A DNA stretch of 64,000 nt, from positions 3,496-67,495 of the IMG/VR virus record IMGVR_UViG_3300025536_000012; one strand, 5' to 3'. Under the pieces are notes generated by a model. The model was not told the DNA's origin. It ran no database searches and was given only the letters and a program-made list of their open reading frames with translations. The stretch is from a virus. Each line of letters begins with the position of its first letter. Within the stretch, counting starts at the first letter, position 1. Shown here one piece after another: positions 2,862 to 58,393 of the stretch. The position numbers and the translations under genes are program-made.

Positions 2862-4676
2862 ATGGGACGCGAAAACTCATTCAAGATGTACGAAGAACCG
2901 ATCCGCACGGAGTATCGCGAATCGGATTCTCGTGACATCGAGAACTTCTACGAGGGGCTTACCAATCGTAGGACCAAAGTCGCCCAACTCGGTGATGCTT
3001 CCGTTGCCTTCATCACGATGAAGAAGCATGCGATGGAGAAATGCGCCAAGTGCGGATCCACAATGATGAAGGAGAAATGCTCCAACGCTGATTGTGGTGA
3101 AGTGAAGATGGCTGGACTCATCAGCTCCGCTAAAGGCGTCGGCACTCGAGCTCTGAATGCGGTTAAGAAGAATCCTGCCATCACTGGAGCTGCTGTTGGA
3201 GCTGCGGGTGGAGCCATTGCTGGTGGCCCCGATCACCGTCTCAGTGGCGCCGCGGCCGGTGCTGGTCTTGGCGCCGCTGCTGGTCACGGAGCTGGAAAGC
3301 TGATGGCTCGAGGTGCTGCAAAGGCGGCACCGGCAGCAGCTGCGAAAGCGGCTCCGGCGGTAGAATCAATGGCGAACCCGGCAAACGTTGTTTCTTTGCC
3401 AAATCCAAACAAAACAGCCGTGATGCCAGCCAAGGGTCCGCACAACATCACCAAATCGTATGGTCCAGGAGAAGCTCCAGGATCTATGTCTGCCGCACCT
3501 GCTACGCCAGCACCGGCTCCGTCTGGTCCTACTCCTGTTCCCTGGGAAGCAGCACCAGGAACCGCTCGTGCTCAAGTACAAGCAGCGGCAAACCTGCCGA
3601 TGCCAGCAGGAGCTCGTACATCGGGTCTCGCCGAACCCGGAAGAGTACCAACTATGCCTTCTACTCCTGTAGCTAAAGGCACGGCTCCTGGAGTGGCAAA
3701 CCAATCTCCCGATGCTGTTGCAGCAGCGCGCCAGGAAATGATGGGTGGAACCCCCATGGGAGTTGGGCAGGCCAAGGGAACTGGTCCCGCTCCTGGATGG
3801 GTTCCTCCGCCCTCGAATAAAACGCAAGTCATGCAGAAAGCCGCGGCTTGGCTGCCCCCTTTCGTCGTAGCTGATGGTCCCTCGAATGCCGCTTCAAGCG
3901 GTGGGCTGTCGGCTGTGAAAGTAGCGTTCAAGATGCCGAAGATTCCTGCCTCGACCATCACCAACATCGTCGAGGAGATGGCAGATCTTGGTCGTCGCAA
4001 GCTGCAATCCGAACTGTCTGTTCAGGCAGAGAAGAGAAGGCGGAAGGAGAAGAACGCTTCTCCCTACGATGACACTTCGCTCATGGACATGAGACAGAGG
4101 GCAGCTGAAAAGTATCCAGAACGGGTGTCTCCTATCGAGGCAATCCGTACCGATTTCAAGAAGGCGTTGAAACTTCTCTCGGACAAAGTTCACGATCTCA
4201 GAACAGAACGAACGGATATCGCTTCTCCGAAGATTGCCATGCAGAACATCCTTCATCATGATGTTCCTCTCAACGCAAATGAGTTTCGAGCTCATCGAGA
4301 GAAGATTGCTGCCGAAGCCGGACTCGACATGAAGGAGATGGCTCAGATGGGCGGTATGCCCAAGACTCTGATGACTCCTAGAGGTGCCGGCTTTGCTGGT
4401 GCCGGAGCTCTCATTGGCGGAGCGATGGGATTTCTAGGTTCTCGTGGCAAGCCAGAGCTCGGTGGTAAAAGCAAGGTTGAGGTAGAGCTCGGAGCTGCAC
4501 GCGATCGTCAACCCGAGAAACCCGATGGTATCGGCGCCACGATCGGAAAACACGTCACTAACATCCACGCCGATGTCGCAGAGCAGATGAGAAAGCATCC
4601 TGTTGTCGCTACTCTCACGGGTGCCGGCGTTGGAGCCGGTCTTGCTCTTCGCGTCGCTTCTATGCTCGGTAAGTGA
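2862..4676 (+). CDS. Ala/Gly-rich virion-associated protein (604 aa)
   Basis: Long ORF with an SD (aaggggggaacATG). Extended AGAAVGAAGGAIAGG and AAAKAAPA tracts, plus a zinc-ribbon-like CAKCGS...CSNADCG. Confidence 0.6.
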   Translation: MGRENSFKMYEEPIRTEYRESDSRDIENFYEGLTNRRTKVAQLGDASVAFITMKKHAMEKCAKCGSTMMKEKCSNADCGEVKMAGLISSAKGVGTRALNAVKKNPAITGAAVGAAGGAIAGGPDHRLSGAAAGAGLGAAAGHGAGKLMARGAAKAAPAAAAKAAPAVESMANPANVVSLPNPNKTAVMPAKGPHNITKSYGPGEAPGSMSAAPATPAPAPSGPTPVPWEAAPGTARAQVQAAANLPMPAGARTSGLAEPGRVPTMPSTPVAKGTAPGVANQSPDAVAAARQEMMGGTPMGVGQAKGTGPAPGWVPPPSNKTQVMQKAAAWLPPFVVADGPSNAASSGGLSAVKVAFKMPKIPASTITNIVEEMADLGRRKLQSELSVQAEKRRRKEKNASPYDDTSLMDMRQRAAEKYPERVSPIEAIRTDFKKALKLLSDKVHDLRTERTDIASPKIAMQNILHHDVPLNANEFRAHREKIAAEAGLDMKEMAQMGGMPKTLMTPRGAGFAGAGALIGGAMGFLGSRGKPELGGKSKVEVELGAARDRQPEKPDGIGATIGKHVTNIHADVAEQMRKHPVVATLTGAGVGAGLALRVASMLGK

Positions 4677-8146: not shown

Positions 8147-11100
8147 ATGGCCGAACTTCCAAGACCGGGCGTCGAAGTCATTCAGCAGTTTCAAGCTGCT
8201 TCACCGACTGTCCTGAACCCCACACTTGTTCCGTTCGTAACGGGACCCGCAAAAGAAATCGTCGAGTTCCTGAACTCAGACGGTTCCATCAACACAGGTG
8301 CCAAGCAGGGTACTTACGAGCAGCTTCCACAGGTAGTTGCCCAGAGTGCCTTTCCCTCCCCACGCAGCAACATTGCTGAAGTGAATGTCGAGGAAGGTAC
8401 CATTGAGGCAGCTATCCTATTCGGAGGAAAGCTCTCTCAGCTCGATCGCGACCCCGGCTCTGCCTTCTTGGTGGGCTGGAACAATGCTCGTCGTGCGGCC
8501 TATCGTTCTCCAGAAATCACTGGTGCCGGACTCGCTCTCGACGGTTTGACTCTTGTCATCGCCATCGACCAGACGGTTCGTCTGAACGTACTCAGCGATA
8601 TCGCTATCACCTTCGCCACAGTCGGAGGCGGTAACCTCACCGCTGCACAGATCGCAGACCAGATCAACGATGCCGTTGGTGAAGACGTCGCCTCTGTCAT
8701 CGAAGTCGGTGCTAACTTCCGTGTTCAGATCGCCTCGACCCTTTGGGGAGCTGGCTCTTCTGTCACCATTCGTGCCGGCGGTTCTGCTAACGCTCTGATG
8801 GTATCCCTCACCGACTCGGTCGAATACCGTGTGGAGGCCGCAGGCTTCTACGCCCAAGATCAGGTCGATAACACCACTCTCTCGCCGTACATTGTCTGGA
8901 GTCGGGGTGTTAAATACCTCGACGGTGTTGCTACCGCCTTCGGAGTGGCCCTGGCTGCCGACGCCAGCTTTGGTCAGATCTACCTCGACTCGAGCGACGT
9001 TGAAACCTACGAGGAAGCTCAGGCTTCGAACATCACCTTCACTGGTGGCGGTTCAATCGATCTCAAGGTCGGCGATTACTTCGTTGTGGATGGCGTTCGT
9101 CCGAACACGTCCGCTGAAGTCTCTCGTGTGGAGACGACTCGCTTCAAGCTTGGAATCATTAACACAGCGCTCTCCACGTTCGATGACGATGGGGATATCC
9201 TGACTGCCGTCTACGACGACAGCAAGGTCAACACTCTTCTCTCCAGCGTCCCATTCTCTCCGCACTATGCGTGGTTCAAAGCCCGTAAGCTTGCGGGAGA
9301 GAATGTCGCTGCCACCGCAGCAACGATGACCGGCACCAAGCTGGGAACTCCTGCAACGGTTGCAACTATCCTCGGCGTCGGTGCCGGTGCTGGTCCATTC
9401 GCTCTTGCTGGTCTGACTCTCAAGACCACACTCACGCTGGATGGAGAAATTCAGGACCAGTATACCTTCACCTTCACAGGTGGACCCTTCGCCGACATGG
9501 CAGCCGTTGTTGCGGTGATCGATATCGATGGGATTGTGGCTTTGGACGCTTCCGGCCAGCTCCGTCTATCGACCACAAGCACTGGTGCTGATCAGGCTCT
9601 GAGTCTAGATACTGGATCATCCGCAGCAGCCGTTCTCGGATTCGCAGCTCTTCCGACCTCTGATATCGGAACTGATGTCGAATTCAAAGATATGGCTGCT
9701 GTTCTGACAGGTGCAGCTCAGACTTTCGCGTTCACTGGAACGATCGGTCATACCCTTCTAGTCGATGTATCGACCGATGGGGGGCTCACCTATCCAGTTA
9801 CGAGGACCTTCACGCATGATGCGGGGTCGATCGGTCCTCATGCCAACATTACCGCTCTTATCGCTGCTCTCAACACAGCAGCTCGATGGGATGGCGGTGT
9901 TTTCCCAACCCAGTTCACGATCACGAACACCGGTAACCAAGTCGTTATCACCTCTACCGCAACGGGCGGTGGTGTGGCTCTTCGGATTGGTGCTGCTTCT
10001 ACCGGTATCTTGCCGGGTGCAACAAATGCCCAGCTTCAGTTCGCTGCTAGTGTTGCTGACATCGGTGAAGAAAACCTTCAGGGTCTCACCCTCAAGCTAC
10101 GCCTTAACGATCGTCCAGACATCTACTCCGTAGTCTTTCAATCCGACTCACTGGATGATGCGGTTGCTGAGATCAACGAGGTTATCGGCTTCTCTGTTGC
10201 CTCTATCGGAGGCGGTTCTCTTAGTCAGCTCGTACTGACGAGTCCTTTGGAAGGTGCGGCCTCCAGGATCGAAGTCGTTGACGATACAGTCAACATCCGC
10301 GGCTATTTGGCCTTCGGTTTCACCTCGAATCAGTCGGCTGTCGGTACTGGTCGTCCCAACCCGGATTTCCGGGTCGACGACTTGGGTAATGCCCTCATTG
10401 GAGGAGAGCTTCTCCGCAATGCAGTGACGGGCAATCCATTCAGCAACTCGATCGCAGACCTGTACATCCAGTACACCGGTCTCCGTCTCGACGTATCTCC
10501 CCTGGCAGCCAGCCCAGCTCTTCTCTCCATCAGCGACGTCACGACCCTCGAGCAGGTTCTCGGTCCTCTGAACCAGAACAATCCTCTCGGTCTCGCGATG
10601 TTCTTTCAGATCATCAACGCCCCCGGCATCGCTTGCAAGGGTATGGGTGTTTCTGGATCTTCTGCTGCGGAGCCCGAAGGAACGTTGACCGCGTACACGC
10701 AGGTCGCCTCGTTCATTCAAAGCGAAGAAGTCTACGCAATCTGTCCTCTGACGTCAGCACAGACCGTTCATGAAATGTTCACAACTCACGTGGGCTTCAT
10801 GTCCGGAGCGGCTCAGAAGGGCGAGCGTATCCTCATCACGTGTCCGCTGGATCCTCTTCGCGATAACGACACTGTCGTATCTTCTGGTCTTTCGGCCAAC
10901 ACTACGGCTACTCCGAACCAGCTCACTCTAGATACGAACCCCAATCAGGGTCTCATCGACAACGGTATCAACCCAGCTCTTCCGATCGATGAGGAAGACG
11001 AGGTCTATATCGAGCTAGCTGTAGTCGTTGGAGCCCTACAGGAGGTTCGTCGATACAGTGTTGCCTCGGTGAATGGTGTCCTCACCACGTTCCGTACGAC

Positions 11101-11869
11101 GTTCACGGGAGACTTCAACATCGACGGTTTCTACACCACGACTCCACTCACGGAGACGTTGGTGAACGCCAACTGGTCAATGGAGATCCGTGGATCCGAG
11201 CTCCTGATCCCTGGCTCTACACTACTCGACAAGGATCGGGTTGCCGCAACAGTAGCTGCTCGAAGCGAATCGATCGGCAATCGTCGAGTCATCTCCCTGT
11301 TCCCCGATACCGTAGTAGCGGTGGTCGAGGGTTCAGATCAGGAGCTCGAGTCATTCTACTACGGTGCCTGCATGACCGGCATGGTGGCCTCAAATCCACC
11401 ACAGCAGGGATTCACCAACCTACCCTCGACGGGCTTCACTGGTGTGAAGGGCTCGCAAGACTCCTTCTCTACCTCGCAGCTCAACATCATGGCGGGTGGT
11501 GGAACGTATATCATCGTTCAGGATGCCCAGGGCGGTCCGGTTACCTGTCGTCATCAGGTCACAACCGACCTGACTTCTACGGAAACCAGAGAGTTCTCTA
11601 TCACCAAGATCGTGGACTTCGTTGCGAAGTTCATGCGTACAGGTCTCCGGAACTACATCGGAACGTTCAACATCACCCAGCCGTTCCTGGACATGCTGTC
11701 TACAGTCATTCAGGGACAACTTTCCTTCCTGGAGGAAGGTGGTGTTATCCTCGGCGGTGACCTGAACAACCTGATTCAGGACAAGGACAATCCGGACACC
11801 GTCATTGTCGACATCACTCTCGACGTTCCCTACCCCTGTAACTACATCCGCCTCACCCTCGTGATCTAA
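8147..11869 (+). CDS. large tail-sheath-like structural protein (1240 aa)
   Basis: Strong SD (gaggagcatttaagATG). The N-terminus MAELPRPGVEVIQQF resembles the conserved PG(I/V)Y/E start of contractile-sheath proteins. Long, Thr/Ala/Gly-rich with internal repeats. Confidence 0.45.
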   Translation: MAELPRPGVEVIQQFQAASPTVLNPTLVPFVTGPAKEIVEFLNSDGSINTGAKQGTYEQLPQVVAQSAFPSPRSNIAEVNVEEGTIEAAILFGGKLSQLDRDPGSAFLVGWNNARRAAYRSPEITGAGLALDGLTLVIAIDQTVRLNVLSDIAITFATVGGGNLTAAQIADQINDAVGEDVASVIEVGANFRVQIASTLWGAGSSVTIRAGGSANALMVSLTDSVEYRVEAAGFYAQDQVDNTTLSPYIVWSRGVKYLDGVATAFGVALAADASFGQIYLDSSDVETYEEAQASNITFTGGGSIDLKVGDYFVVDGVRPNTSAEVSRVETTRFKLGIINTALSTFDDDGDILTAVYDDSKVNTLLSSVPFSPHYAWFKARKLAGENVAATAATMTGTKLGTPATVATILGVGAGAGPFALAGLTLKTTLTLDGEIQDQYTFTFTGGPFADMAAVVAVIDIDGIVALDASGQLRLSTTSTGADQALSLDTGSSAAAVLGFAALPTSDIGTDVEFKDMAAVLTGAAQTFAFTGTIGHTLLVDVSTDGGLTYPVTRTFTHDAGSIGPHANITALIAALNTAARWDGGVFPTQFTITNTGNQVVITSTATGGGVALRIGAASTGILPGATNAQLQFAASVADIGEENLQGLTLKLRLNDRPDIYSVVFQSDSLDDAVAEINEVIGFSVASIGGGSLSQLVLTSPLEGAASRIEVVDDTVNIRGYLAFGFTSNQSAVGTGRPNPDFRVDDLGNALIGGELLRNAVTGNPFSNSIADLYIQYTGLRLDVSPLAASPALLSISDVTTLEQVLGPLNQNNPLGLAMFFQIINAPGIACKGMGVSGSSAAEPEGTLTAYTQVASFIQSEEVYAICPLTSAQTVHEMFTTHVGFMSGAAQKGERILITCPLDPLRDNDTVVSSGLSANTTATPNQLTLDTNPNQGLIDNGINPALPIDEEDEVYIELAVVVGALQEVRRYSVASVNGVLTTFRTTFTGDFNIDGFYTTTPLTETLVNANWSMEIRGSELLIPGSTLLDKDRVAATVAARSESIGNRRVISLFPDTVVAVVEGSDQELESFYYGACMTGMVASNPPQQGFTNLPSTGFTGVKGSQDSFSTSQLNIMAGGGTYIIVQDAQGGPVTCRHQVTTDLTSTETREFSITKIVDFVAKFMRTGLRNYIGTFNITQPFLDMLSTVIQGQLSFLEEGGVILGGDLNNLIQDKDNPDTVIVDITLDVPYPCNYIRLTLVI

Positions 11870-16855: not shown

Positions 16856-16863
16856 CTTATCCC
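16856..16863 (-). promoter_or_regulatory. conserved promoter-like motif GGGATAAG (class A)
   Basis: Coding-strand GGGATAAG. The TAA stop codon of the upstream gene is embedded in the motif. Confidence 0.45.
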
Positions 16864-16864
16864 T

Positions 16865-18940
16865 TCAATGTCGGAGGAACCGTACGAACTCTCGAAGCAC
16901 CACTTCGAGCAAGGCTTGTCCTATCTCAATTGCGGGCACTCGACGCCAGAAGGAAGGAGGACCGAACATCTCGAGAGCGTCTGCATCCGTGATTTCGTTT
17001 CCAAGGATGACGGTATAGATCATCACCTTCTTCGTTCGTGCGTACTCAATCTCCTTCCGAACGAAACCCATCAACGCTTCTCTAGAAATGTCCTTGCCGT
17101 CGACCTTGAATTGGGTTGGATTACCGTCAGTGAGAAGAAATAACCTCTTCTTCATTCCAGGCGGAGTGCTCGATGCGAGGTGCTTCACCGCAACGTGAAT
17201 TCCCGTGTGTGTGGGAGTCATGCCATCACATGACACCGGTATAGTGCTCTTCTGGTTCGCGTAGAGACCCTGTGCCTCCACCTCAGTCGCTAAATAACCA
17301 TCACAATCCTTGTGGTACTTGTAGATCCACACCTCACCACCGTTTGTGAGGGCAGCGATCTTTTCTTTGATCGTGGGATAGACACCAAAGTCCTTTCCTA
17401 TGGCTCCTCGAAAACCCCACAGATTTCCGCGTACGAATGGATAGTCTAGAGCTCGCTTGAGCATCTCAGATCCGATGCAGACGTAGTTGAATGGATTGCC
17501 GGTCATGGACCCTGACATGTCACAAAGCGTCAGATAGGAGAACCCGCGATCAAATCCGTCGTCCTCGAATACTGCATCATCTTGGCCATCCATTCGATAT
17601 TGGATCATTGCCTGTACATCGATTTCATCTCCGTCGTCAACAAGTCTGGAGATCTTTTTGCCGATGAACTTCGCAAAGACCGAGCGCATCCGATCAATTT
17701 GCTCTTCTTCATCGAGGGGAATGACGATGCGAGCATTGGGCGAGATGTGTTTGGGCTCTACATCGGCGATGAGCACCTTGGCAGCAGCTTCGGTAAGCAG
17801 AAACTGGTTCTTGCTGAGCTCTCCTTCCGATGCTCTCTGAAGTGCCTTGATTGCGCCTTCCATATCTCCATCGACTGGAACCTTGAGCCCCATAGATTGG
17901 AGTGTGGGGACTTCTTCCTGTTTCCCCTGCATCGGCATGTTGAAGATCTTGGCCAGCGCCGCCTCATCAGAGATCTGTAGCTTGTGGAGAGGGTTTACTG
18001 TCTTGTCGTGCTGGCTGAGCTGGTAGTGCTCTTGGTCTCGACGGAACGTGTGTGCTCGGTCAGAGAGCTGCTGCGCTGCCTCATCTCTGGTTTCGGGCCG
18101 TGCCTGCGACTGTGGAGATTCTCTATCGTCGCTCTTGTCTCCACTTTCCTGCTGCTCTTCCTGTCCTTCACCTTTTTCTTCTTCCTCGGGAGGATTGATG
18201 AGTCGTTCCAAACACTGCTCGAGGAACCAGCGCACAACGGCCAGCATATTGGCCGCACCACGTCCCTTCACAGCCTCTGTAGCCTTACGAGCTAGCGGGA
18301 CTAGATCGTGAAAAGGTCCTTTTCTCCTATTGAGATTCTCGGCATCCAGAGCCACGCCGAAGATCCAAGAGATGAAGTTCTCATTGAGGTCTGGAGCAGC
18401 CTCTGCGAGCTCCTTCCACTTCAAGGCGATCTCTCCTGCTGAACCTGGATAGACGAGAGACCACAAACTGTTCACGCGTAGATCGTCGAAAGCCTCAACG
18501 ATCTGACGAATCAACACCTCTACGTGAGCTCCGAAATGTGCTGAGTACATCGTCACGAACCTGTGAAACAGAGCCGGAGACGATTTGAATATGATGTGAC
18601 TCCACTCGTGCTCGAAGCTGCGATAGGCGTACATCATGCCGCAGCGATAGCAGGACATCTCTGTTCCTGGACGAATAATGGCTTCTCGTCGTGCCATCGA
18701 AGTATGCCCACAACTCAGAAGGCACTCCACCGGGCCATACACCTCGATTACTTTCTGGATCACGACCTGGCTGAAATTCACAGCCACGAAACCGACGATG
18801 TTGGTGCTCGAGACCTTGTCTTCTTTGAGGACGATCTTCTTATCGAACAATCCGTTGAAGATGTGGTTGGTTTTGTAGAAGGGGTCCTTGCTTGGGATGT
18901 TGAACTCTGGATCTACGTACTCAGACAGCGGTCGTTTCAT
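16865..18940 (-). CDS. CobT-like VWA-domain protein with N-terminal HExxH motif (691 aa)
   Basis: MIDAS-like LTLCDMSGSMTG (DxSGS) places a VWA domain at the C-terminus. HEWSH zinc-hydrolase-like motif and an acidic E/Q-rich linker. Confidence 0.65.
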   Translation of the reverse strand: MKRPLSEYVDPEFNIPSKDPFYKTNHIFNGLFDKKIVLKEDKVSSTNIVGFVAVNFSQVVIQKVIEVYGPVECLLSCGHTSMARREAIIRPGTEMSCYRCGMMYAYRSFEHEWSHIIFKSSPALFHRFVTMYSAHFGAHVEVLIRQIVEAFDDLRVNSLWSLVYPGSAGEIALKWKELAEAAPDLNENFISWIFGVALDAENLNRRKGPFHDLVPLARKATEAVKGRGAANMLAVVRWFLEQCLERLINPPEEEEKGEGQEEQQESGDKSDDRESPQSQARPETRDEAAQQLSDRAHTFRRDQEHYQLSQHDKTVNPLHKLQISDEAALAKIFNMPMQGKQEEVPTLQSMGLKVPVDGDMEGAIKALQRASEGELSKNQFLLTEAAAKVLIADVEPKHISPNARIVIPLDEEEQIDRMRSVFAKFIGKKISRLVDDGDEIDVQAMIQYRMDGQDDAVFEDDGFDRGFSYLTLCDMSGSMTGNPFNYVCIGSEMLKRALDYPFVRGNLWGFRGAIGKDFGVYPTIKEKIAALTNGGEVWIYKYHKDCDGYLATEVEAQGLYANQKSTIPVSCDGMTPTHTGIHVAVKHLASSTPPGMKKRLFLLTDGNPTQFKVDGKDISREALMGFVRKEIEYARTKKVMIYTVILGNEITDADALEMFGPPSFWRRVPAIEIGQALLEVVLREFVRFLRH

Positions 18941-19941
18941 ACCGCTGCCCTAGTGCTGTTCCACTTCTCCTTGGCCTTGAATCCGGCAAAGCTTGAGCTG
19001 ATTCGAGCCGCCACGGTCTCTTTGTCCTTGCCCTCGAACTTGTGGAAGAGCATCTGCAAGGCCGATTCGGGCCCTAGAAGCAGGATGGTCCTCAATAGCT
19101 TCACCACGTCTCGAGTAGAGAGGGCATAGCTGAGGCTGTGTCTCTTCTCTCTGGTCTCAGCGGCCAACGTGGTGCAACCCAGAACGAAGGCATCGAAAGC
19201 AACTGGATCCATACCCACCGGTATAGGTACATTGGCTTCCAAAATGGCCTTCTCTTGGCTCTGTGTGGGGTAACCGATCTCAACCTCTACCCATCTAGAC
19301 CGGAAGTCTTCATTGAGATCGTAGGTGCCTCCGTAGAGAGACGGATTCATGAGACCAACAGCCCAAATCTGAGCTCCAGCTCTCAAGCGATAGGTCTTGC
19401 CAGCTTGAGGAATGGATACCGACTTACGGAAATCGAGAAACTCATTGAGCTGCTTTTGTGTCTGAGGTGTGAGGGCATTTACCTCTTCGAAGGCGATGAT
19501 GGCTCGACCGTACTCGTTGGCAACATCGATGGCGGTGGCCATGCTGCCCAACATGAAGGGCGTCTCACTACCTTTGAAGAAGAAGTTACCGATCAAATCT
19601 TTCTTCTTGATATCTTCACTACACGGTACAGTGATGGTTGGAGTTTGTGTAGTCGCCGCAAGAGCGATGAGGGAGAGGGATTTACCATCTCCTTTGGGCC
19701 CCCGTACAAGTAGATTCTCGTTGAACATCAGCTTGTGGTAGAGGGGAATCAGGTTGAAGACATCCACGTATGGAGGTGTGGAGGTGTACATGAAGTCTTC
19801 GATAGGGGATCGCACAATGGAGATATCTGACTCTCCGTTAGACATCTCGAGTTTCAACGAGGCGAACTGAGATGGAGTGAGCTCGCTCAACCACTTTTTC
19901 CACATAGACATTTCTTTCTCCTGGCAAAAAATGAGGCGCAC
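18937..19941 (-). CDS. MoxR/CobS-like AAA+ ATPase (334 aa)
   Basis: Walker A LLVRGPKGDGKSLS, Walker B-like AIIAFEEVNAL. ATGA overlap with the downstream VWA partner, a typical arrangement. Confidence 0.7.
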   Translation of the reverse strand: MRLIFCQEKEMSMWKKWLSELTPSQFASLKLEMSNGESDISIVRSPIEDFMYTSTPPYVDVFNLIPLYHKLMFNENLLVRGPKGDGKSLSLIALAATTQTPTITVPCSEDIKKKDLIGNFFFKGSETPFMLGSMATAIDVANEYGRAIIAFEEVNALTPQTQKQLNEFLDFRKSVSIPQAGKTYRLRAGAQIWAVGLMNPSLYGGTYDLNEDFRSRWVEVEIGYPTQSQEKAILEANVPIPVGMDPVAFDAFVLGCTTLAAETREKRHSLSYALSTRDVVKLLRTILLLGPESALQMLFHKFEGKDKETVAARISSSFAGFKAKEKWNSTRAAV

Positions 19942-21993: not shown

Positions 21994-22290
21994 CTATTTT
22001 TCGAAGGCCTGTGTGTTGAGAGTTTCTCGCCAGGGCTTCAGATTTGTGCCTGTAAATAGGATTGGATCGAGCTCGTAGAGCTTGACGATGCTCATAACAA
22101 CCCAGCGAGTATCCGGGCTGAGCGCCACCGGGTAATACTGCACCATCTGACTCTCGCCAGTAATGTACGTGACGGCACAGATCAACTCTCGACCTGTGTA
22201 CCTTCCAGCTCCAGTACCAGCACATAGAAGGCATTTCTTTGACGTAGTTTCGTCTTGATCTACGAAACGCTTCTCACCCGCACATGACAA
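21994..22290 (-). CDS. hypothetical protein (98 aa)
   Basis: ORF overlapping the next gene by 31 nt. Confidence 0.35.
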   Translation of the reverse strand: MSCAGEKRFVDQDETTSKKCLLCAGTGAGRYTGRELICAVTYITGESQMVQYYPVALSPDTRWVVMSIVKLYELDPILFTGTNLKPWRETLNTQAFEK

Positions 22291-22895
22291 TCAGCGCAAT
22301 ACCCTTTCTCGTCCCCAAATTCTTGAAGAACGAGAATATCTCCATTTCTGAAACCTCGATCCTGACGTCTCCACTCGTGGGTCTTTGCTCCGCTGTGGAT
22401 TGCATCGAACCCAGTGGGCCACGTCTTGAGCATGTGGACTTGTTTTCTTCCCCAGGCAACCTTGTTGAGAAGTTTGGATCGCGTTTGCTCGAGAAGTAAC
22501 AGCTCCTTAATTCGGGGCGGTTTCCAACCTTCTGGTTTGAGCTGTTTTCCTGTCACCGGATCTAGTGGTCCGCCTTCTTTCTGAAGATTGGTCCAACAAA
22601 CCTCCTCCCAGAACGGCGCTAGTCGGATACCAGCTTTGGACATGGCGTAGAGCACGACGAAAATCGTATCAGCTGCCCCATCGATGATTTCCGCCCAATT
22701 CTCCTCATCAATTGCGTCGAGCATTTCTTTGCTCTCTTCCTTGATGAGCTTGATGCAGAGATCTCGAACCTTGTCATCAGGCCAATGAGCAACTACGGCT
22801 CCCAAGTCCCCCTTCTTAACCCTGGTGATGAACTTGTCGACATCTTGCTGAATCAGTTCCATTGGAGTCATCGCGCAGCTCTTCCTTTCAGCCAT
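22260..22895 (-). CDS. MazG-like NTP pyrophosphohydrolase fused to an ASCH/PUA-like domain (211 aa)
   Basis: EESKEMLDAIDEENWAEIIDGAADTIFVVLY matches the MazG EExxE/D helix motifs. The C-terminal FDAIHSGAKTHEWRRQDRGFRNGDILVLQE resembles ASCH. Confidence 0.55.
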   Translation of the reverse strand: MAERKSCAMTPMELIQQDVDKFITRVKKGDLGAVVAHWPDDKVRDLCIKLIKEESKEMLDAIDEENWAEIIDGAADTIFVVLYAMSKAGIRLAPFWEEVCWTNLQKEGGPLDPVTGKQLKPEGWKPPRIKELLLLEQTRSKLLNKVAWGRKQVHMLKTWPTGFDAIHSGAKTHEWRRQDRGFRNGDILVLQEFGDEKGYCADCHVRVRSVS

Positions 22896-23368
22896 TTCTG
22901 GAGAAGCTTAACCACATCATATGGATCAGCATTCTCGATAAGGTGAATCCTGCATTCGACTCGAGATTCATCGGTGACAGGCACCCAAACATCATCCGTG
23001 TAGTTATAGGGTGTGAGACCGCCGATCATCTCACCCCCGTAGGAGGTAATATCTACGTTGAATGAGATACCTCCACGTGTACCATCCCAATCCTTGGAAT
23101 TCAGGATCTGAGCAACAACATCTACGTCTTGCTCGTCCGGATCTCCGTCACGGGTTAGGTGGTTCGCGTCCCGAGAGACACCGATGGCGTATCGCCCATC
23201 CTCTTGCTCGTAGATCTTGGAGCAGAACCATGAAAAACGCTCCAACTCGGTCTTGATCCCGGTTAGAACGTTTTTCAGTCTGTCCTCGTAGGTCGCCTTG
23301 ATCTTCTCGTAGCATTCGGTTAGTTCAGAATCATCCAAGTCTGGTGCCAGATCGTCTACCACTCCCAT
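22868..23368 (-). CDS. hypothetical acidic protein (about 166 aa, start at MGVVDD)
   Basis: The internal ATG at 23368 avoids a long overlap with the upstream gene. Confidence 0.45.
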   Translation of the reverse strand: MGVVDDLAPDLDDSELTECYEKIKATYEDRLKNVLTGIKTELERFSWFCSKIYEQEDGRYAIGVSRDANHLTRDGDPDEQDVDVVAQILNSKDWDGTRGGISFNVDITSYGGEMIGGLTPYNYTDDVWVPVTDESRVECRIHLIENADPYDVVKLLQKWLKGRAAR

Positions 23369-24579
23369 TCGTCGCGCTTCTCTTCGTCGATGGGCTCGAT
23401 TACGTAGTTCTTCTGGTAGAGGAGCTCGCCAGCCGCCTCCTCGAGGTCTTCCTGGTACCAGGGCGACTTCCAGCTTGGGGCCGATTCGTGAGCCATGCGA
23501 GTGATGGCTGCATTGACATGAGCGACAGTATCGCCCGGTTCCTTGTTCCACGCAGTCATGAGGTAGGAAAGAAGATCGTCCCTGTTGAGGTGGGGAACCA
23601 CAATCTTCTTGGCAGCGATGAGCCGCTTGAATGTCTCTTCGGCGCCCAGTGGGGTGCCATCGTACCTATCGTGGTACTGCTTCGTGTAGGCATCACTCCA
23701 ACGAGAAGCGAAGCTATCCAGAGCTGTGGAGGAGGCTCGGATGGCAGCCTCGACGACATCTTGAATCTTGTTGCCCCGGTGTGTGGTGCGAAACACCAAG
23801 TTCTCATCGCTGACGAGAGTGCAGTTGATGCAGGCGATACGAACCGCCTTGTATTTGATGCGGTATCCCTCGGTGCCATTGTCTGCACTCGAGATGATGA
23901 TGGCGACACGGAACAACCGACCAACTCCGAGCTCGTCCACTTCGTAGGGGTTGTGGAGAACAACCTCGAAGGTGGCTCGAGATCCGTCGTACTTAACGTC
24001 TGCCCGTGCATCGCTGGGGTATTGCGTCGCCTTGGTGACTGCCGCTAGTTGATCCCAGTCGAACGCCTGATAGTTCTTGCCCACCGCTGCGAAGCACTGC
24101 TTCATGTTGGTGGTCGCATCCGGGTTACGAGTACGGAGTTTCGTCTCCTTGGTGCAGTCCTTCATCCAGCTGTTGAGGTTGGACCGAAGCCGGCTATCCA
24201 TTGCATCGGGCCCGAGTTTGGCGAGCTGATTCCACCCAACGGGCTCCATGATGAGGCCACCACCGCCAGGAGCTCCACGAAGAACTCCCATACCATCGAC
24301 GGAGAGCTCCTTGATTTTGGTGACGATATCGTAGCGGTTCTCCGCCTTGATGCGCTCGATCAGCTTATCGCTGGCCTCCTCGACCATCGGAAGGTTCTCC
24401 CACTGGGTCCTACCCTCCATGGCCTTCTGTTCACCCATATCCAGCATCTTGGTGCCGTGAGCGAACCATGACTTGTTGAGGTTCTTGTTGTTGAGGAAGT
24501 TCTGAACCAGCTCGTACTCTTGATTCGCGAGATTGACTGCGTTGGGGTTGATATCGACTCCGGGGATGAGTGCTGTCAT
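23356..24579 (-). CDS. hypothetical protein (about 407 aa, start at MTALIPG)
   Basis: ATG at 24579 with SD acaaggaacacATG. Confidence 0.55.
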   Translation of the reverse strand: MTALIPGVDINPNAVNLANQEYELVQNFLNNKNLNKSWFAHGTKMLDMGEQKAMEGRTQWENLPMVEEASDKLIERIKAENRYDIVTKIKELSVDGMGVLRGAPGGGGLIMEPVGWNQLAKLGPDAMDSRLRSNLNSWMKDCTKETKLRTRNPDATTNMKQCFAAVGKNYQAFDWDQLAAVTKATQYPSDARADVKYDGSRATFEVVLHNPYEVDELGVGRLFRVAIIISSADNGTEGYRIKYKAVRIACINCTLVSDENLVFRTTHRGNKIQDVVEAAIRASSTALDSFASRWSDAYTKQYHDRYDGTPLGAEETFKRLIAAKKIVVPHLNRDDLLSYLMTAWNKEPGDTVAHVNAAITRMAHESAPSWKSPWYQEDLEEAAGELLYQKNYVIEPIDEEKRDEWEW

Positions 24580-25039
24580 GTGTTCCTTGTATTGGTTGGG
24601 TCTGACATCGGGCAAAAGAGAAGTCCCACGACTCCTCAACTAACAGCTGCGGCCGGTCGCAACATGTACCAATGTCGCAAGGCCGTTTCGATAACGAAGC
24701 AGGCTGCTTGGAGGATGACCCGCCAAGCGCTGCCAGGATCGAAATGAAAGCTGTAGGCCGCCCGTTCCTGGTGGAATTGGACGGTTATGGAGATCAAGTT
24801 TTAGTTCCAATCCATCTGATCGTAGCGGGCCGAGTGCTTCGGATTTCCGCCGCCAACGAAGCTGTGGTTCTTGTCCTCGTAGACGATCTCACCCTGCGGT
24901 GTCGAGCCCTCTCGAAAGAGAAGTCCTTCTACTTGACCGAGTGGATGCATATGGACGTGAGGGCATGGCTGGAACAGCATTCCTACTACCGACTCTCCTT
25001 TGTCTTTCTTCTCGTCACTCATAGATTTACCTTACCCCA

Positions 25040-25432
25040 CTAGGGTAGCTGAGAACCAGCATCCGTTTTCTTGGATTTGAGATGGTTAGTGATGAACGTC
25101 GTGAAGCTCTTCGAGTCCGCTGGTTTGTCAATGCGAGGAACGTTCTTCAAATCGACAGTAGTCAGTATGCTCTCGGAGCTCGAGTGGAATAGGAAGCTCG
25201 ACAACATGTGAGGCATGTGTTCCGCGAGCCATCGGTAGAACTCGATACCATCCATCTCTGGCATCCGTATATCGCTGACGATCAAATCGATATTCTCGTT
25301 CGAGGTTTTGAGAAACTCTCGAGCAAGACTGCCATCGCAGAAGCCGATGACCTTGTATCTCAACCGAATGAGCAGCTTAGTTGTGGCACGCCGAACAAGA
25401 TCATCGTCTTCAACTAGAAGAACCGTCACCAT
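25040..25432 (-). CDS. stand-alone response-regulator receiver (REC/CheY-like) domain protein (about 130 aa)
   Basis: MVTVLLVEDDDLV...IDLIVSDIRMPEMDG...KP carries the acidic pocket, the phospho-acceptor Asp and the conserved Lys-Pro. SD ttttggaggtcttATG. No output domain. Confidence 0.7.
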   Translation of the reverse strand: MVTVLLVEDDDLVRRATTKLLIRLRYKVIGFCDGSLAREFLKTSNENIDLIVSDIRMPEMDGIEFYRWLAEHMPHMLSSFLFHSSSESILTTVDLKNVPRIDKPADSKSFTTFITNHLKSKKTDAGSQLP

Positions 25433-25507
25433 AAGACCTCCAAAAAACGCCGAAGGGGAAGGGGCGTTCAAGGCCTTATGCCTCCAAAAGGGGTATTATT
25501 TTAGTGC

Positions 25508-56538: not shown

Positions 56539-57933
56539 ATGAACTCGGTAGAGCTTGCGGCCTTCAGCGACGAGCTGATGAAGATTGCTGCCGACAAGGA
56601 AAAACCCTTCTGGCAAAAAGCACTGCCATTTGCTGCGGCGGCCGGTGCTGGAGTCCTTGCCTACAAAGGCTTGAGGACACCATCCTTTTCCAAGAACCCG
56701 GCGTTACGGAAAGTTCAAGAGCTCGCATCTAGCAAAGGCTTCCACCGTATCGTCGACGTGACTCCTGATGGAACTGGTGGATTTCTTCGTCCTGTTGCTG
56801 ATGCTCAGGGCAAGCTCTCGCCATTGAACAAGGCCAAGCTGTTCCTGAACGAAGGAACTACAGAAGCCATTCCGATCACCTACACCCCGAACCAGGCGGG
56901 TAATTACTCCACCAAGGTTGTTGGTCAGAAAGGTCCGAGACAGGTAGAGGGTGTCGTTCATGGACGTCCTGATATTTACGGACGTGACAAGGCGGTTCGC
57001 GGAGGTGTGGATGTCGAAGGTACCCCTGAGGTGCAGAGAGCGATGACCAACCTTGCTGCGGGTGGAAAGAGGAGTGAAGCAGATCTCCTCAGCAAGCACG
57101 CCCCTGAAGCAATCCCAGAGACCTTCACGGATCTATCTCCGATGTTCAAGAAGCTCCCGAAGGATCGGCAGCAAGCCATCAACGAGCTCCGTAACAGAAT
57201 CAGAGCAGCCCATGGAGAGAATGTTCTACTGAAGCCGAACCAGGGCCTGTCTTCTGGAGGCAAATTTCCTCGATCCAATCAAGACTGGGGAGCTCAACTT
57301 CGGACCTACGACGAACACATGGCAGATCCAGTCAAGAGAAAGGCGTATCGAGCTCTGAAGGGTGAGGACAATGCTCTTGCCGATTATTCGAAAGAACATG
57401 GATTGTACGAGGGCAGTGTGCTTCACAATGCGCTCAAAGATCCGAAGTCGATGCTTGCTCAGAAGATAGTAGACAATCCAATGGGCGAGTGGAGAGTGCA
57501 TACTGTTGCAGGAGAAGCTCCGAGAGGGTTGATGACTCCCAGGTTCGCTAGCAACCCAGCAAAGACTCTAGCTGCTCGTGCCGGTGTTGGAGATGCCAGC
57601 ACCAAAGAACTCCAGCAATTCGTAGAGCAGGATATTCTACAGAAACTACCAAAAAATTATCGCGAGGGTAACTACGCCTTCGATGTCATGCCACATCGGA
57701 AGCCTGATGGCTCCATCGGGTTCAAGACCATCGAGATGAATCCAGCGGAGAGAGCGAAGAGCCAGAGTCTATCTGGTGGAGGATCGGGGTTCTTGGATAC
57801 AGCAGCCTCTCCGTTCTCTGGACTAAAACATTACCGCGCCGTAACTGGCAGACATACACCCCTAGTTGCTGGACTAGGAGCCGCCGGAGCCGCAGGCGCT
57901 ACCGGAGCAGTTACAGGGACCGTGGGCGAATGA
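56539..57933 (+). CDS. ATP-grasp superfamily ligase (RimK/GshB-like) with N-terminal extension and Gly/Ala-rich tail (464 aa)
   Basis: NVLLKPNQGLSSGGK matches the ATP-grasp P-loop-like VIKP..G.GG. EWRVHTVAGE matches the (D/E)xRV.VVGGE strand. YAFDVMPHRKPDGSIGFKTIEMNP matches the G.D......G..(V/I)E(V/M)N..P catalytic region. Confidence 0.6.
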   Translation: MNSVELAAFSDELMKIAADKEKPFWQKALPFAAAAGAGVLAYKGLRTPSFSKNPALRKVQELASSKGFHRIVDVTPDGTGGFLRPVADAQGKLSPLNKAKLFLNEGTTEAIPITYTPNQAGNYSTKVVGQKGPRQVEGVVHGRPDIYGRDKAVRGGVDVEGTPEVQRAMTNLAAGGKRSEADLLSKHAPEAIPETFTDLSPMFKKLPKDRQQAINELRNRIRAAHGENVLLKPNQGLSSGGKFPRSNQDWGAQLRTYDEHMADPVKRKAYRALKGEDNALADYSKEHGLYEGSVLHNALKDPKSMLAQKIVDNPMGEWRVHTVAGEAPRGLMTPRFASNPAKTLAARAGVGDASTKELQQFVEQDILQKLPKNYREGNYAFDVMPHRKPDGSIGFKTIEMNPAERAKSQSLSGGGSGFLDTAASPFSGLKHYRAVTGRHTPLVAGLGAAGAAGATGAVTGTVGE

Positions 57934-58393
57934 TCAGTCCTTCGTTGTTCCATCGCTTCTCGAACTGAGAGATCGAGCTCTCACGGAATAACTGACTTTT
58001 CCAACTTGGATCAGACAGGTAGACCGTGTCCTCTTTCTCGTCGATGGCGTAGACAACTCCGTAGTGATCTCCGTCCAGGCCAACCATCACTACATTGTCT
58101 GTAGCGATAGCCTTTACCAGATCTCTCCAGGACATCTTCGGTCTTCGGCCAACACGCATCCCATGAGAACGTAGGAAGCGTATGACTGGAGCCTCTGCTG
58201 TCCCGTCCGAATCCGTCTTGAGCTTCTCGTACACCTCTCTGTAGCTGACATCGACTCCGAAGAACGAAGTGATGGCATATACACAACACGGCCCGCAGGT
58301 GTACGACGTGAACTGAAACTTACGCGGAAAGTCTGCAAACCCGACGAGAGAATCTGATCTCTTATCGGGGATGCCGAGAAGTAGACCCAGCAT
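57911..58393 (-). CDS. C39-like (papain-fold) cysteine peptidase domain protein (160 aa)
   Basis: YTCGPCCVYAITSFFG matches the Peptidase_C39/C39_2 catalytic-Cys block (N.CGP..L.M.L.YYG). DGDHYGVVYAID supplies the His block. Its 3' end overlaps the ATP-grasp gene convergently by 23 nt. Confidence 0.6.
   Translation of the reverse strand: MLGLLLGIPDKRSDSLVGFADFPRKFQFTSYTCGPCCVYAITSFFGVDVSYREVYEKLKTDSDGTAEAPVIRFLRSHGMRVGRRPKMSWRDLVKAIATDNVVMVGLDGDHYGVVYAIDEKEDTVYLSDPSWKSQLFRESSISQFEKRWNNEGLIIRPRSL

Follow-up and report, generated by a model that had tools for sequence, protein, structure and literature searches.

The 64,000-nucleotide stretch of viral DNA analysed here (hereafter the window) covers positions 3,496 to 67,495 of IMG/VR record IMGVR_UViG_3300025536_000012 and is part of the 212,233-bp metagenomic phage contig k141_24263 of ENA ERZ27300258. 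On its minus strand, at 25040..25432 with the stop codon included, lies a coding sequence for a 130-amino-acid stand-alone response-regulator receiver, assigned by Pfam, AlphaFold2, Foldseek and family conservation. Bacteria sense their surroundings mainly through two-component phosphorelays. Judged by its sequence and predicted structure, the gene is a genuine single-domain response regulator, apparently phosphorylatable in view of its full catalytic residue set. It belongs to a distinct, deeply diverged receiver family which, as far as homology searches tell, is a fixed part of a single uncultivated clade of large tailed phages of up to about 212 kb. Receivers have been annotated in viruses before; the novelty lies in a family that is distinct, fixed in its clade and shows evidence of selection.

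The receiver gene and its protein

The gene runs from an ATG at 25432-25430 to a TAG stop at 25042-25040. A Shine-Dalgarno sequence, GGAGG (25437..25441, minus strand), can be read 4 nt 5' of the ATG, and AGGAG(G) stands at the equivalent place in 6/6 orthologous leaders. An alternative start, TTG at 25471, would give a longer open reading frame (ORF); because the orthologues begin MAT(V/I)LL, the 130-amino-acid ATG start is favoured. The DNA of the gene is identical in three further assembled contigs.

The protein matches the Pfam hidden Markov model Response_reg (PF00072) at 57.8 bits (E = 1.4e-15; gathering cut-off 30.2 bits) over profile positions 1-106 of 111. Its receiver motifs are LLVEDDD (residues 5-11), LIVSDIRMPEMDG (residues 50-62, with D54) and K103-P104, and the residues of the phospho-chemistry are the E8/D9 acidic pair, the acceptor D54, S84 at the Thr/Ser position, and K103-P104. 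Searches of NCBIfam and PHROGs returned solely receiver-containing families, none of them above its curated cut-off.

An AlphaFold2 model built from a 74-sequence alignment predicts the (beta/alpha)5 order of a receiver with a predicted local distance difference test score (pLDDT) of 93.1 and a predicted template-modelling score (pTM) of 0.86. In this predicted structure alpha4 is short, with 6 residues (87-92), and alpha5 is long (107-126). When the model was compared with the Protein Data Bank (PDB) by Foldseek, the best 50 fold matches were all receivers (50/50), with template-modelling (TM) scores of 0.72-0.82. The receiver fold spans residues 3-126 of 130 and is followed by a short disordered tail, at most about 20 residues come after alpha5, and neither Pfam nor the model shows an output domain fused to it. 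The sequence-only reading of the window had described a complete CheY-like receiver signature without an output domain at this ORF; both points hold, the profile match and the confident fold prediction agree with them, and a different flavodoxin-like fold family is excluded by the PDB matches.

The 'switch' position of beta5, three residues before the conserved lysine (K-3; equivalent to Y106 of CheY), is occupied by the non-aromatic R100, and the 17 rows of the family alignment described below have R (12), L (4) or I (1) there. CheY, PhoB and Spo0F hold an aromatic switch residue at K-3. Such a residue is typical of receivers without being obligatory, and many relay-type receivers are without it.

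The fold also bears on the possibility that the protein is an enzyme and not a signalling component. The divergent 'cyclic-phosphate processing Rec' (cRec) domain, proposed by Iyer et al. in 2021, occurs in jumbo phages with its catalytic aspartates kept (PMC7824862), and a cRec-type enzyme would act on cyclic ADP-ribose (cADPR) or 2',3'-cyclic phosphate ends. The phage receiver is like cRec in its receiver-derived fold, its jumbo-phage setting, its catalytic aspartates and the lack of a kinase link, and a weak 2H-phosphoesterase-like match lies 36 kb from it. However, classical receivers, both as a sequence model and as structures, are a far better fit to it than an annotated phage cRec protein is: the phage receiver matches the classical Pfam model over its full length, and its predicted structure superposes on the cRec protein at a TM score of only 0.56 (root-mean-square deviation 5.1), as against 0.72-0.82 on classical receivers. 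Moreover, cRec is defined by an NAD+/RNA-repair gene context, whereas no NAD+/ADP-ribose, WYL or RNA-ligase gene is present in the conserved neighbourhood of the phage receiver. We regard this explanation as largely refuted, with a marginal chance of being correct.

The receiver family and its clade

A word-indexed search for relatives of the receiver returned three close ones only. HMMER, run exhaustively over 1.84 billion cluster representatives, then provided 37,117 receivers at E <= 1e-3. Among the best 150 of these 37,117 matches, 96 have kinase motifs and are probably hybrid kinases, and 12 are single-domain proteins. When aligned with the receiver, these 12 single-domain relatives display a common pattern, namely MATILLVDD..., W68, FxF(H/C/Y)(S/T)SS and VPRxDKP. 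A profile of the family separates its members (at least 142 bits) from all other sequences (at most 111 bits), and all members are stand-alone proteins of 116-135 amino acids. One member is carried by the IMG/VR viral contig L014, where the ORF duplicates another entry (P0082), and the 17 rows of the conservation table therefore represent 16 distinct members.

The family was found in one clade of large phages only, at a constant syntenic place wherever contig placement was possible. The gene order in the clade is an MVP-like gene, GyrB, variable genes, the receiver, an optional ORF of about 70 amino acids, a gene of about 402-408 amino acids, another of about 155-167 amino acids, and PRA-PH/MazG, after which come a collagen-like gene (in some members), AAA_5, a gene of about 690 amino acids and one of about 400 amino acids. 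In a scan of 185,579 prokaryotic species, each represented by one genome, no full-length cellular family member was among the matches listed. Most of these lay mainly within the N-terminal 65-100 residues, with 26-46% identity; a few extended further but were only about 26-34% identical. The similarity of the family to other receivers is concentrated in residues 1-76, and the beta4-alpha4-beta5 half, with FxFxS... and VPRxDKP, is family-specific.

A conserved active site in a diverging protein

Identity to the window receiver drops to 30-58% across the 16 distinct members, in all of which D9, D54 and K103 are invariant; the acceptor aspartate is thus not lost on careful alignment. Position 8 is always D or E, position 84 is S in 11 rows and T in 6, and P104 is present in 16/17 rows. 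This pattern bears on the possibility that the protein is a pseudo-receiver, that is, a phosphorylation-independent scaffold with leftover ancestral residues. Phosphorylation-independent receivers exist, and the alpha4 region of the phage protein is atypical. Yet the five catalytic positions stay fixed in a family of such low overall identity, which would hardly be expected unless the chemistry itself were under selection, and a pseudo-receiver therefore seems very improbable.

Between two moderately diverged phages, the ratio of nonsynonymous to synonymous substitution (dN/dS) of the receiver gene is 0.17 (dS 0.78), and by this measure the gene is clearly under purifying selection. Its dN is nevertheless 0.131 versus 0.060 and 0.038 for two larger neighbours, which is 2-3.4 times higher. 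Among syntenic genes of at least 100 amino acids, the receiver is the most divergent in 3/4 pairwise genome comparisons and second in the fourth, in a ranking that leaves out small ORFs and in which a 415-amino-acid ORF scores lower in the related loci L012 and L013. For example, the receiver is 52% identical in locus L004, where other syntenic genes are 57-87% identical, and 32% identical in L009, where the others are 37-75% identical. As read from these alignments, the pattern is that of a fast-evolving surface around a frozen active site, which would be the expectation for a protein with important chemistry and changing partners.

Non-catalytic residues are also conserved in the family (W68, F80, F82, P99, R100 and D102); these could equally belong to the structural core or to a surface that meets a partner.

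The region upstream of the receiver gene

A promoter-like motif, GGCATAAGGCCTTGAA (25467..25482, minus strand), lies about 35 nt 5' of the receiver start codon and is kept in relatives. Its consensus is G[GA]NATAAG-N3-5-TGA, in which ATAAG and TGA are invariant in 7 diverged phages. The window holds 5 copies of the consensus versus 0.55 in shuffled sequences, all on the minus strand, which is the coding strand, with first bases at 39172, 30476, 25482, 21534 and 16863. The distance from motif to start codon is about 25-60 nt for four copies and about 200 nt for the copy at 16863, and the motif recurs at orthologous sites of related phages. Besides the receiver, four genes of this minus-strand, non-structural region carry it, and no copy was found within the virion (structural) gene block of the window. 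The motif copies are likely a phage-specific promoter or RNA element; they resemble a class of promoter particular to this phage and common to a few non-structural genes, which would argue against late, structural timing of receiver expression.

Between the motif and the Shine-Dalgarno sequence lies a weakly supported feature (25445..25469, minus strand), a small GC-rich hairpin with a U-run that may be a leader stem-loop or an upstream terminator. The minimum-free-energy fold places a hairpin here in 5/7 orthologous leaders, with differing stem sequences; its stability is that of shuffled sequence (z -0.2 to -1.6), and RNAalifold gave no consensus structure on a gapped MAFFT alignment of the leaders. 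A scan for sigma-70 promoter and terminator consensus sequences near the receiver gene was not informative; shuffled sequences contained more promoter-like sites.

The phage and its probable host

The attribution of this DNA to a phage is borne out by contig genes for a terminase, a capsid and a tail-sheath-like protein. For the capsid protein, identity to the annotated major capsid protein of Salmonella phage Arash is 27% (E = 3e-25), a GpA_ATPase terminase gene lies 10 kb past the capsid gene, and PHROG matches in the window include tail sheath and collagen-like tail fibre. In the 1240-amino-acid protein encoded at 8147-11869 (plus strand), the last ~200 residues alone are tail-sheath-like (phrog_279) and are preceded by a long N-terminal extension. 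Just outside the window (L143, 3409-5625), between the terminase and capsid genes, a 738-amino-acid protein matches Pfam InPase (PF18823). No tRNA genes were found, the GC content is about 52%, and the majority of ORFs are without a family match. Megablast of 20 kb against GenBank phages gave no nucleotide match, and tblastn with the receiver against 50,697 GenBank phage records gave none at E <= 1e-3 and noise only at E <= 5. The phage clade is one without a deposited relative.

The first indication of a host comes from GyrB. The phage GyrB (27177-29291, minus strand; 704 amino acids; Pfam matches including HATPase_c) has no insert domain, and neither have its closest relatives, which are 65-82% identical and, where they could be placed on contigs, are phage relatives. 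The nearest cellular GyrBs are 64-69% identical and lie on contigs of up to 3.3 Mb; all of those with an informative taxon name are assigned to Kofleriaceae, Myxococcales, Myxococcota or 'Deltaproteobacteria'. This affinity suggests that the gene was captured from myxobacteria and that the phage probably infects them. A GyrA-like gene was not noticed in the window.

A Major Vault Protein (MVP)-like gene is encoded at 30561-33188 (minus strand; 875 amino acids), with Pfam matches to MVP_shoulder (3e-30), Vault_3 (5.5e-10) and the Vault repeat, and it is kept across the phage clade at 59-66% identity. Among bacteria, Myxococcales, Cytophagales and Oscillatoriales are reported to have MVP homologues (bioRxiv 10.1101/872010), and the presence of the gene in the clade adds to the myxobacterial lead. 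Over 97% of its length, the protein also shares 40% identity with ORFs of 'uncultured phage' LR756500, LR756501 and LR756503 (462-735 kb). Two gut-phage MVPs were reported as the first viral ones in a 2023 preprint (10.1101/2023.11.10.566534), and MVP-like genes in the receiver phage clade and in huge phages would lengthen the list of viral MVPs.

Taken together, Myxococcota, or myxobacteria, are a reasonable lead and probably the host of the clade. A phage of much lower GC content than its myxobacterial host would have a precedent in the large myxophage Mx1, which has a GC content of 55.5% versus 68.8% for its host (PMC10720576). Neither response regulators nor jumbo phages nor vault proteins are mentioned in a recent paper on CRISPR-linked myxobacterial viruses.

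Orphan kinases, hybrid kinases and stand-alone receivers are exceptionally abundant in myxobacteria. In a host so rich in two-component systems, many circuits would therefore be open to a viral receiver.

Neighbouring genes and the search for a partner

A search for a kinase was made with 125 multi-domain proteins, mostly hybrid kinases by motif, as phmmer queries against six-frame ORFs; in the window and 14 related loci the receiver ORF was the sole match. A Pfam scan that took in the majority of the remaining larger ORFs of the window, apart from a few short ORFs near the gene at 29.3-35.5 kb, found no HisKA or Hpt domain, and HATPase_c appeared within GyrB only. The precomputed Pfam lists for 34.2-115.6 kb of the 212-kb contig likewise contain no HisKA and no Hpt, and no histidine kinase or Hpt lies within 10 kb of the receiver in the 14 related loci. 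The statement of the sequence-only reading that no histidine kinase adjoins the receiver thus extends from the window to 81 kb of the contig and to the 10-kb surroundings in the relatives.

It is conceivable that the phage encodes a two-component system or phosphorelay of its own, to which the receiver belongs and the kinase or Hpt of which lies in the other 131 kb of the genome. Some IMG/VR viral contigs and some giant viruses encode hybrid kinases, and the scans covered the 34.2-115.6 kb part of the contig. Nevertheless, the related loci and the 81 kb scanned speak against it, as do about 20 other viral stand-alone receivers, which are also without a kinase within 10 kb, and we consider a partner of this sort improbable.

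Directly 3' of the receiver is an ORF of 73 amino acids (24801..25022, minus strand) that is kept in some relatives: its orthologues are 42-66% identical in L004, L005, L008 and L012, and none was found in L009 or L013. It has no Pfam, PHROG or PADLOC match. It is followed by a gene for a 407-amino-acid protein (23356-24579, minus strand), the most conserved gene of the region, with 70-88% identity across the clade. This gene was considered as a hidden kinase or partner and rejected, with a weak sub-threshold DUF932 match and no PHROG, PADLOC or PDB profile match; its single-sequence AlphaFold2 model (pLDDT 35) is unusable. PADLOC found no defence-system match for the receiver and nine neighbours.

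The receiver neighbourhood otherwise consists of GyrB, MazG/PRA-PH, AAA proteins and genes without an assigned function. At 22260-22895 (minus strand) a PRA-PH/MazG-type nucleotide pyrophosphohydrolase is fused to DUF3850 (ASCH-like, RNA-binding PHROG), and in some relatives the PRA-PH part occurs alone, without DUF3850. An AAA_5 ATPase (18937-19941, minus strand; MoxR/CobS-like, PHROG 'porphyrin biosynthesis') lies next to a 691-amino-acid protein with a weak VWA match (16865-18940, minus strand). By their domains, these two genes look like a CobS/CobT- or MoxR-VWA-like pair, with 52-80% identity across the clade. Farther away, the Pfam sweep of the non-structural region of the window showed a 377-amino-acid protein with DUF7277 and DUF7275 (37087-38220, minus strand; E = 1.9e-51) and a 160-amino-acid Peptidase_C39-like cysteine protease (57911-58393, minus strand).

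Possible roles of the receiver

Since no kinase or Hpt of the phage itself was found, host phosphodonors are proposed. The phage receiver would take phosphoryl groups from hybrid-kinase or Hpt-type relay proteins of the host, or possibly from acetyl phosphate. The main effect would most likely be competitive, because the protein is without an output domain and an aromatic switch residue and its alpha4 is shortened: the flow through a host phosphorelay would be diverted or buffered by a sink or decoy, and a drained relay would blunt the response of the host during infection. We put the probability that the protein acts as a phosphate sink or decoy in a host phosphorelay, with D54 phosphorylated by host donors, at roughly 0.4. 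The sequence-only reading had made the same suggestion, which is plausible and only circumstantially supported. What speaks for it, besides the features of K-3 and alpha4, is that hybrid-kinase receivers prevail among the nearest cellular relatives, that the CckA receiver and CpdR rank high among the named families, that the protein changes fast around a fixed active site, and that the presumed host phylum abounds in two-component systems. Relay-type receivers that just hand on phosphate are often without an aromatic switch and have such features, and sink or relay single-domain regulators are common in Myxococcota. The non-aromatic K-3 position and the short alpha4 would lean to a relay or sink role over that of a classical output switch.

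Several points weigh against a sink or decoy. Such a protein would need high expression and a specificity that matches the host kinase. The kinase scans took in 81 kb of the 212-kb contig, and a phage-encoded kinase may still lie in the other 131 kb. The resemblance of the receiver to hybrid kinases is partly a scoring artefact, because multi-receiver proteins sum their scores, and its best cellular matches are taxonomically mixed (Okeania, Desulfobacterales) and carry no signal of origin. The proposed host, too, leans mainly on one gene, GyrB. Finally, the conserved non-catalytic residues listed above could form a target surface, which would favour a switch or adaptor.

As such a phospho-switch or adaptor, the receiver would sense the state of the host through host kinases or acetyl phosphate and bind a phage or host protein according to its phosphorylation state, and in this way phage development would be tuned or a host machine redirected. 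Many single-domain regulators act so: CheY binds FliM, CpdR binds ClpX, and RssB binds sigma-S. The full set of phospho-chemistry residues is conserved, the conserved non-catalytic residues could make a partner surface together with the long conserved alpha5, and the models of CpdR, CckA and RssB are among the best named matches. On the other hand, the absence of an aromatic residue at K-3 and the short alpha4 reduce the usual alpha4-beta5-alpha5 output face, and the scores for named families are far under the cut-offs (e.g., 49 vs 180 bits for CpdR). The flanking small ORFs are variable or absent, and synteny extends over the entire block, so that no gene in it is singled out as a partner. 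A switch or adaptor is possible, if somewhat unlikely.

A more specific form of the sink or decoy proposal can be put forward, more speculatively and as an unlikely one: a dedicated viral mimic of a host phosphorelay component, used by a phage clade that infects Myxococcota, that siphons phosphate from a developmental, motility or stress/abortive-infection relay and so keeps the host permissive for replication. If true, the mimic would be the first demonstrated hijack of His-Asp signalling by a virus with its own receiver, and an arms race against host kinases or Hpt proteins would account for the fast evolution of the protein.

The family offers a clean test case, with one small clade-wide gene, an intact active site, a fast-changing surface and hosts that are likely rich in two-component systems. 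If a relay is indeed drained or rewired, His-Asp mimicry would join the strategies of viral takeover, and the protein would provide a natural tool to perturb specific phosphorelays. If the gene is merely a generic auxiliary one, it would be ordinary, as receivers are already scattered through the catalogues of phages and giant viruses.

Comparison with known receivers

The rarity that the sequence-only reading had implied for a phage-encoded receiver was overstated, since annotations of receivers, some of them stand-alone, already exist for phages and giant viruses. A search of BFVD at E <= 1e-3 gave 27 viral receiver-fold proteins, including stand-alone ones of phages and giant viruses. About 20/49 of the IMG/VR receiver loci are stand-alone ORFs of at most 160 amino acids with no kinase motif within 10 kb, and such ORFs, unrelated to the phage receiver, occur on large contigs (L017, 407 kb; L061, 275 kb; L062, 152 kb). 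Large phages thus seem to have picked up orphan receivers repeatedly. An exact-phrase search of the literature library used found no functional study of a virus-encoded receiver. Small inhibitor proteins are a known means by which phages interfere with two-component systems, an example being PIT4 in Pseudomonas (PMC10714779).

The nearest viral counterparts by description are gp30 of Alteromonas phage vB_AmeM_PT11-V22 and gp11 of schitovirus A5, stand-alone CheY-like proteins of 149 and 147 amino acids, respectively, that are listed as class II auxiliary genes with no kinase described (PMC7289586, PMC10579305). V22 gp30 superposes on the model of the phage receiver at a TMq of 0.78, with a structural-alignment identity of 14%. 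However, neither protein has a detectable sequence relationship with the phage receiver (tblastn, E <= 1e-3), and the lineages and hosts of their phages differ from those of the phage receiver. Both sit in a host-recognition module, whereas the phage receiver is located among replication and nucleotide-metabolism genes.

Among cellular families, the CckA receiver and CpdR are among the best named matches for 4/4 family members scanned, together with NosR, LuxN and EspC. The idea that the phage protein is a CpdR arose because Hyphomicrobiales receivers of 120 amino acids gave the best N-terminal matches, and it was rejected: the receiver scores 49.3 bits with the CpdR model (NCBIfam NF046022) and three relatives 45.6-51.6 bits, against a cut-off of 180, and the Hyphomicrobiales receivers, too, are far below that cut-off. 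Identity as a chemotaxis CheY was likewise rejected, with no che gene in the Pfam scans of the window ORFs and no CheY model among the best 25 NCBIfam matches. The CckA-receiver/CpdR group, which consists of relay intermediates served by Hpt proteins such as ChpT, has the full catalytic set in common with the phage receiver, but the phage family scores far below the cut-offs of both (46-52 vs 180 bits for CpdR and 40-57 vs 1000 bits for CckA). The few CpdR-like and hybrid-kinase receivers inspected have, like the phage receiver, a non-aromatic residue at K-3; hybrid-kinase receivers differ in that the phage protein is free-standing and encoded by a virus.

In architecture, the phage protein is comparable to CheY1 of Sinorhizobium, Spo0F of Bacillus and RedF/RedD of Myxococcus, which are likewise receiver-only and act in the way proposed here. 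Those regulators are chromosomal and have known kinases, whereas the phage gene is viral, and the likeness drawn here is one of architecture.

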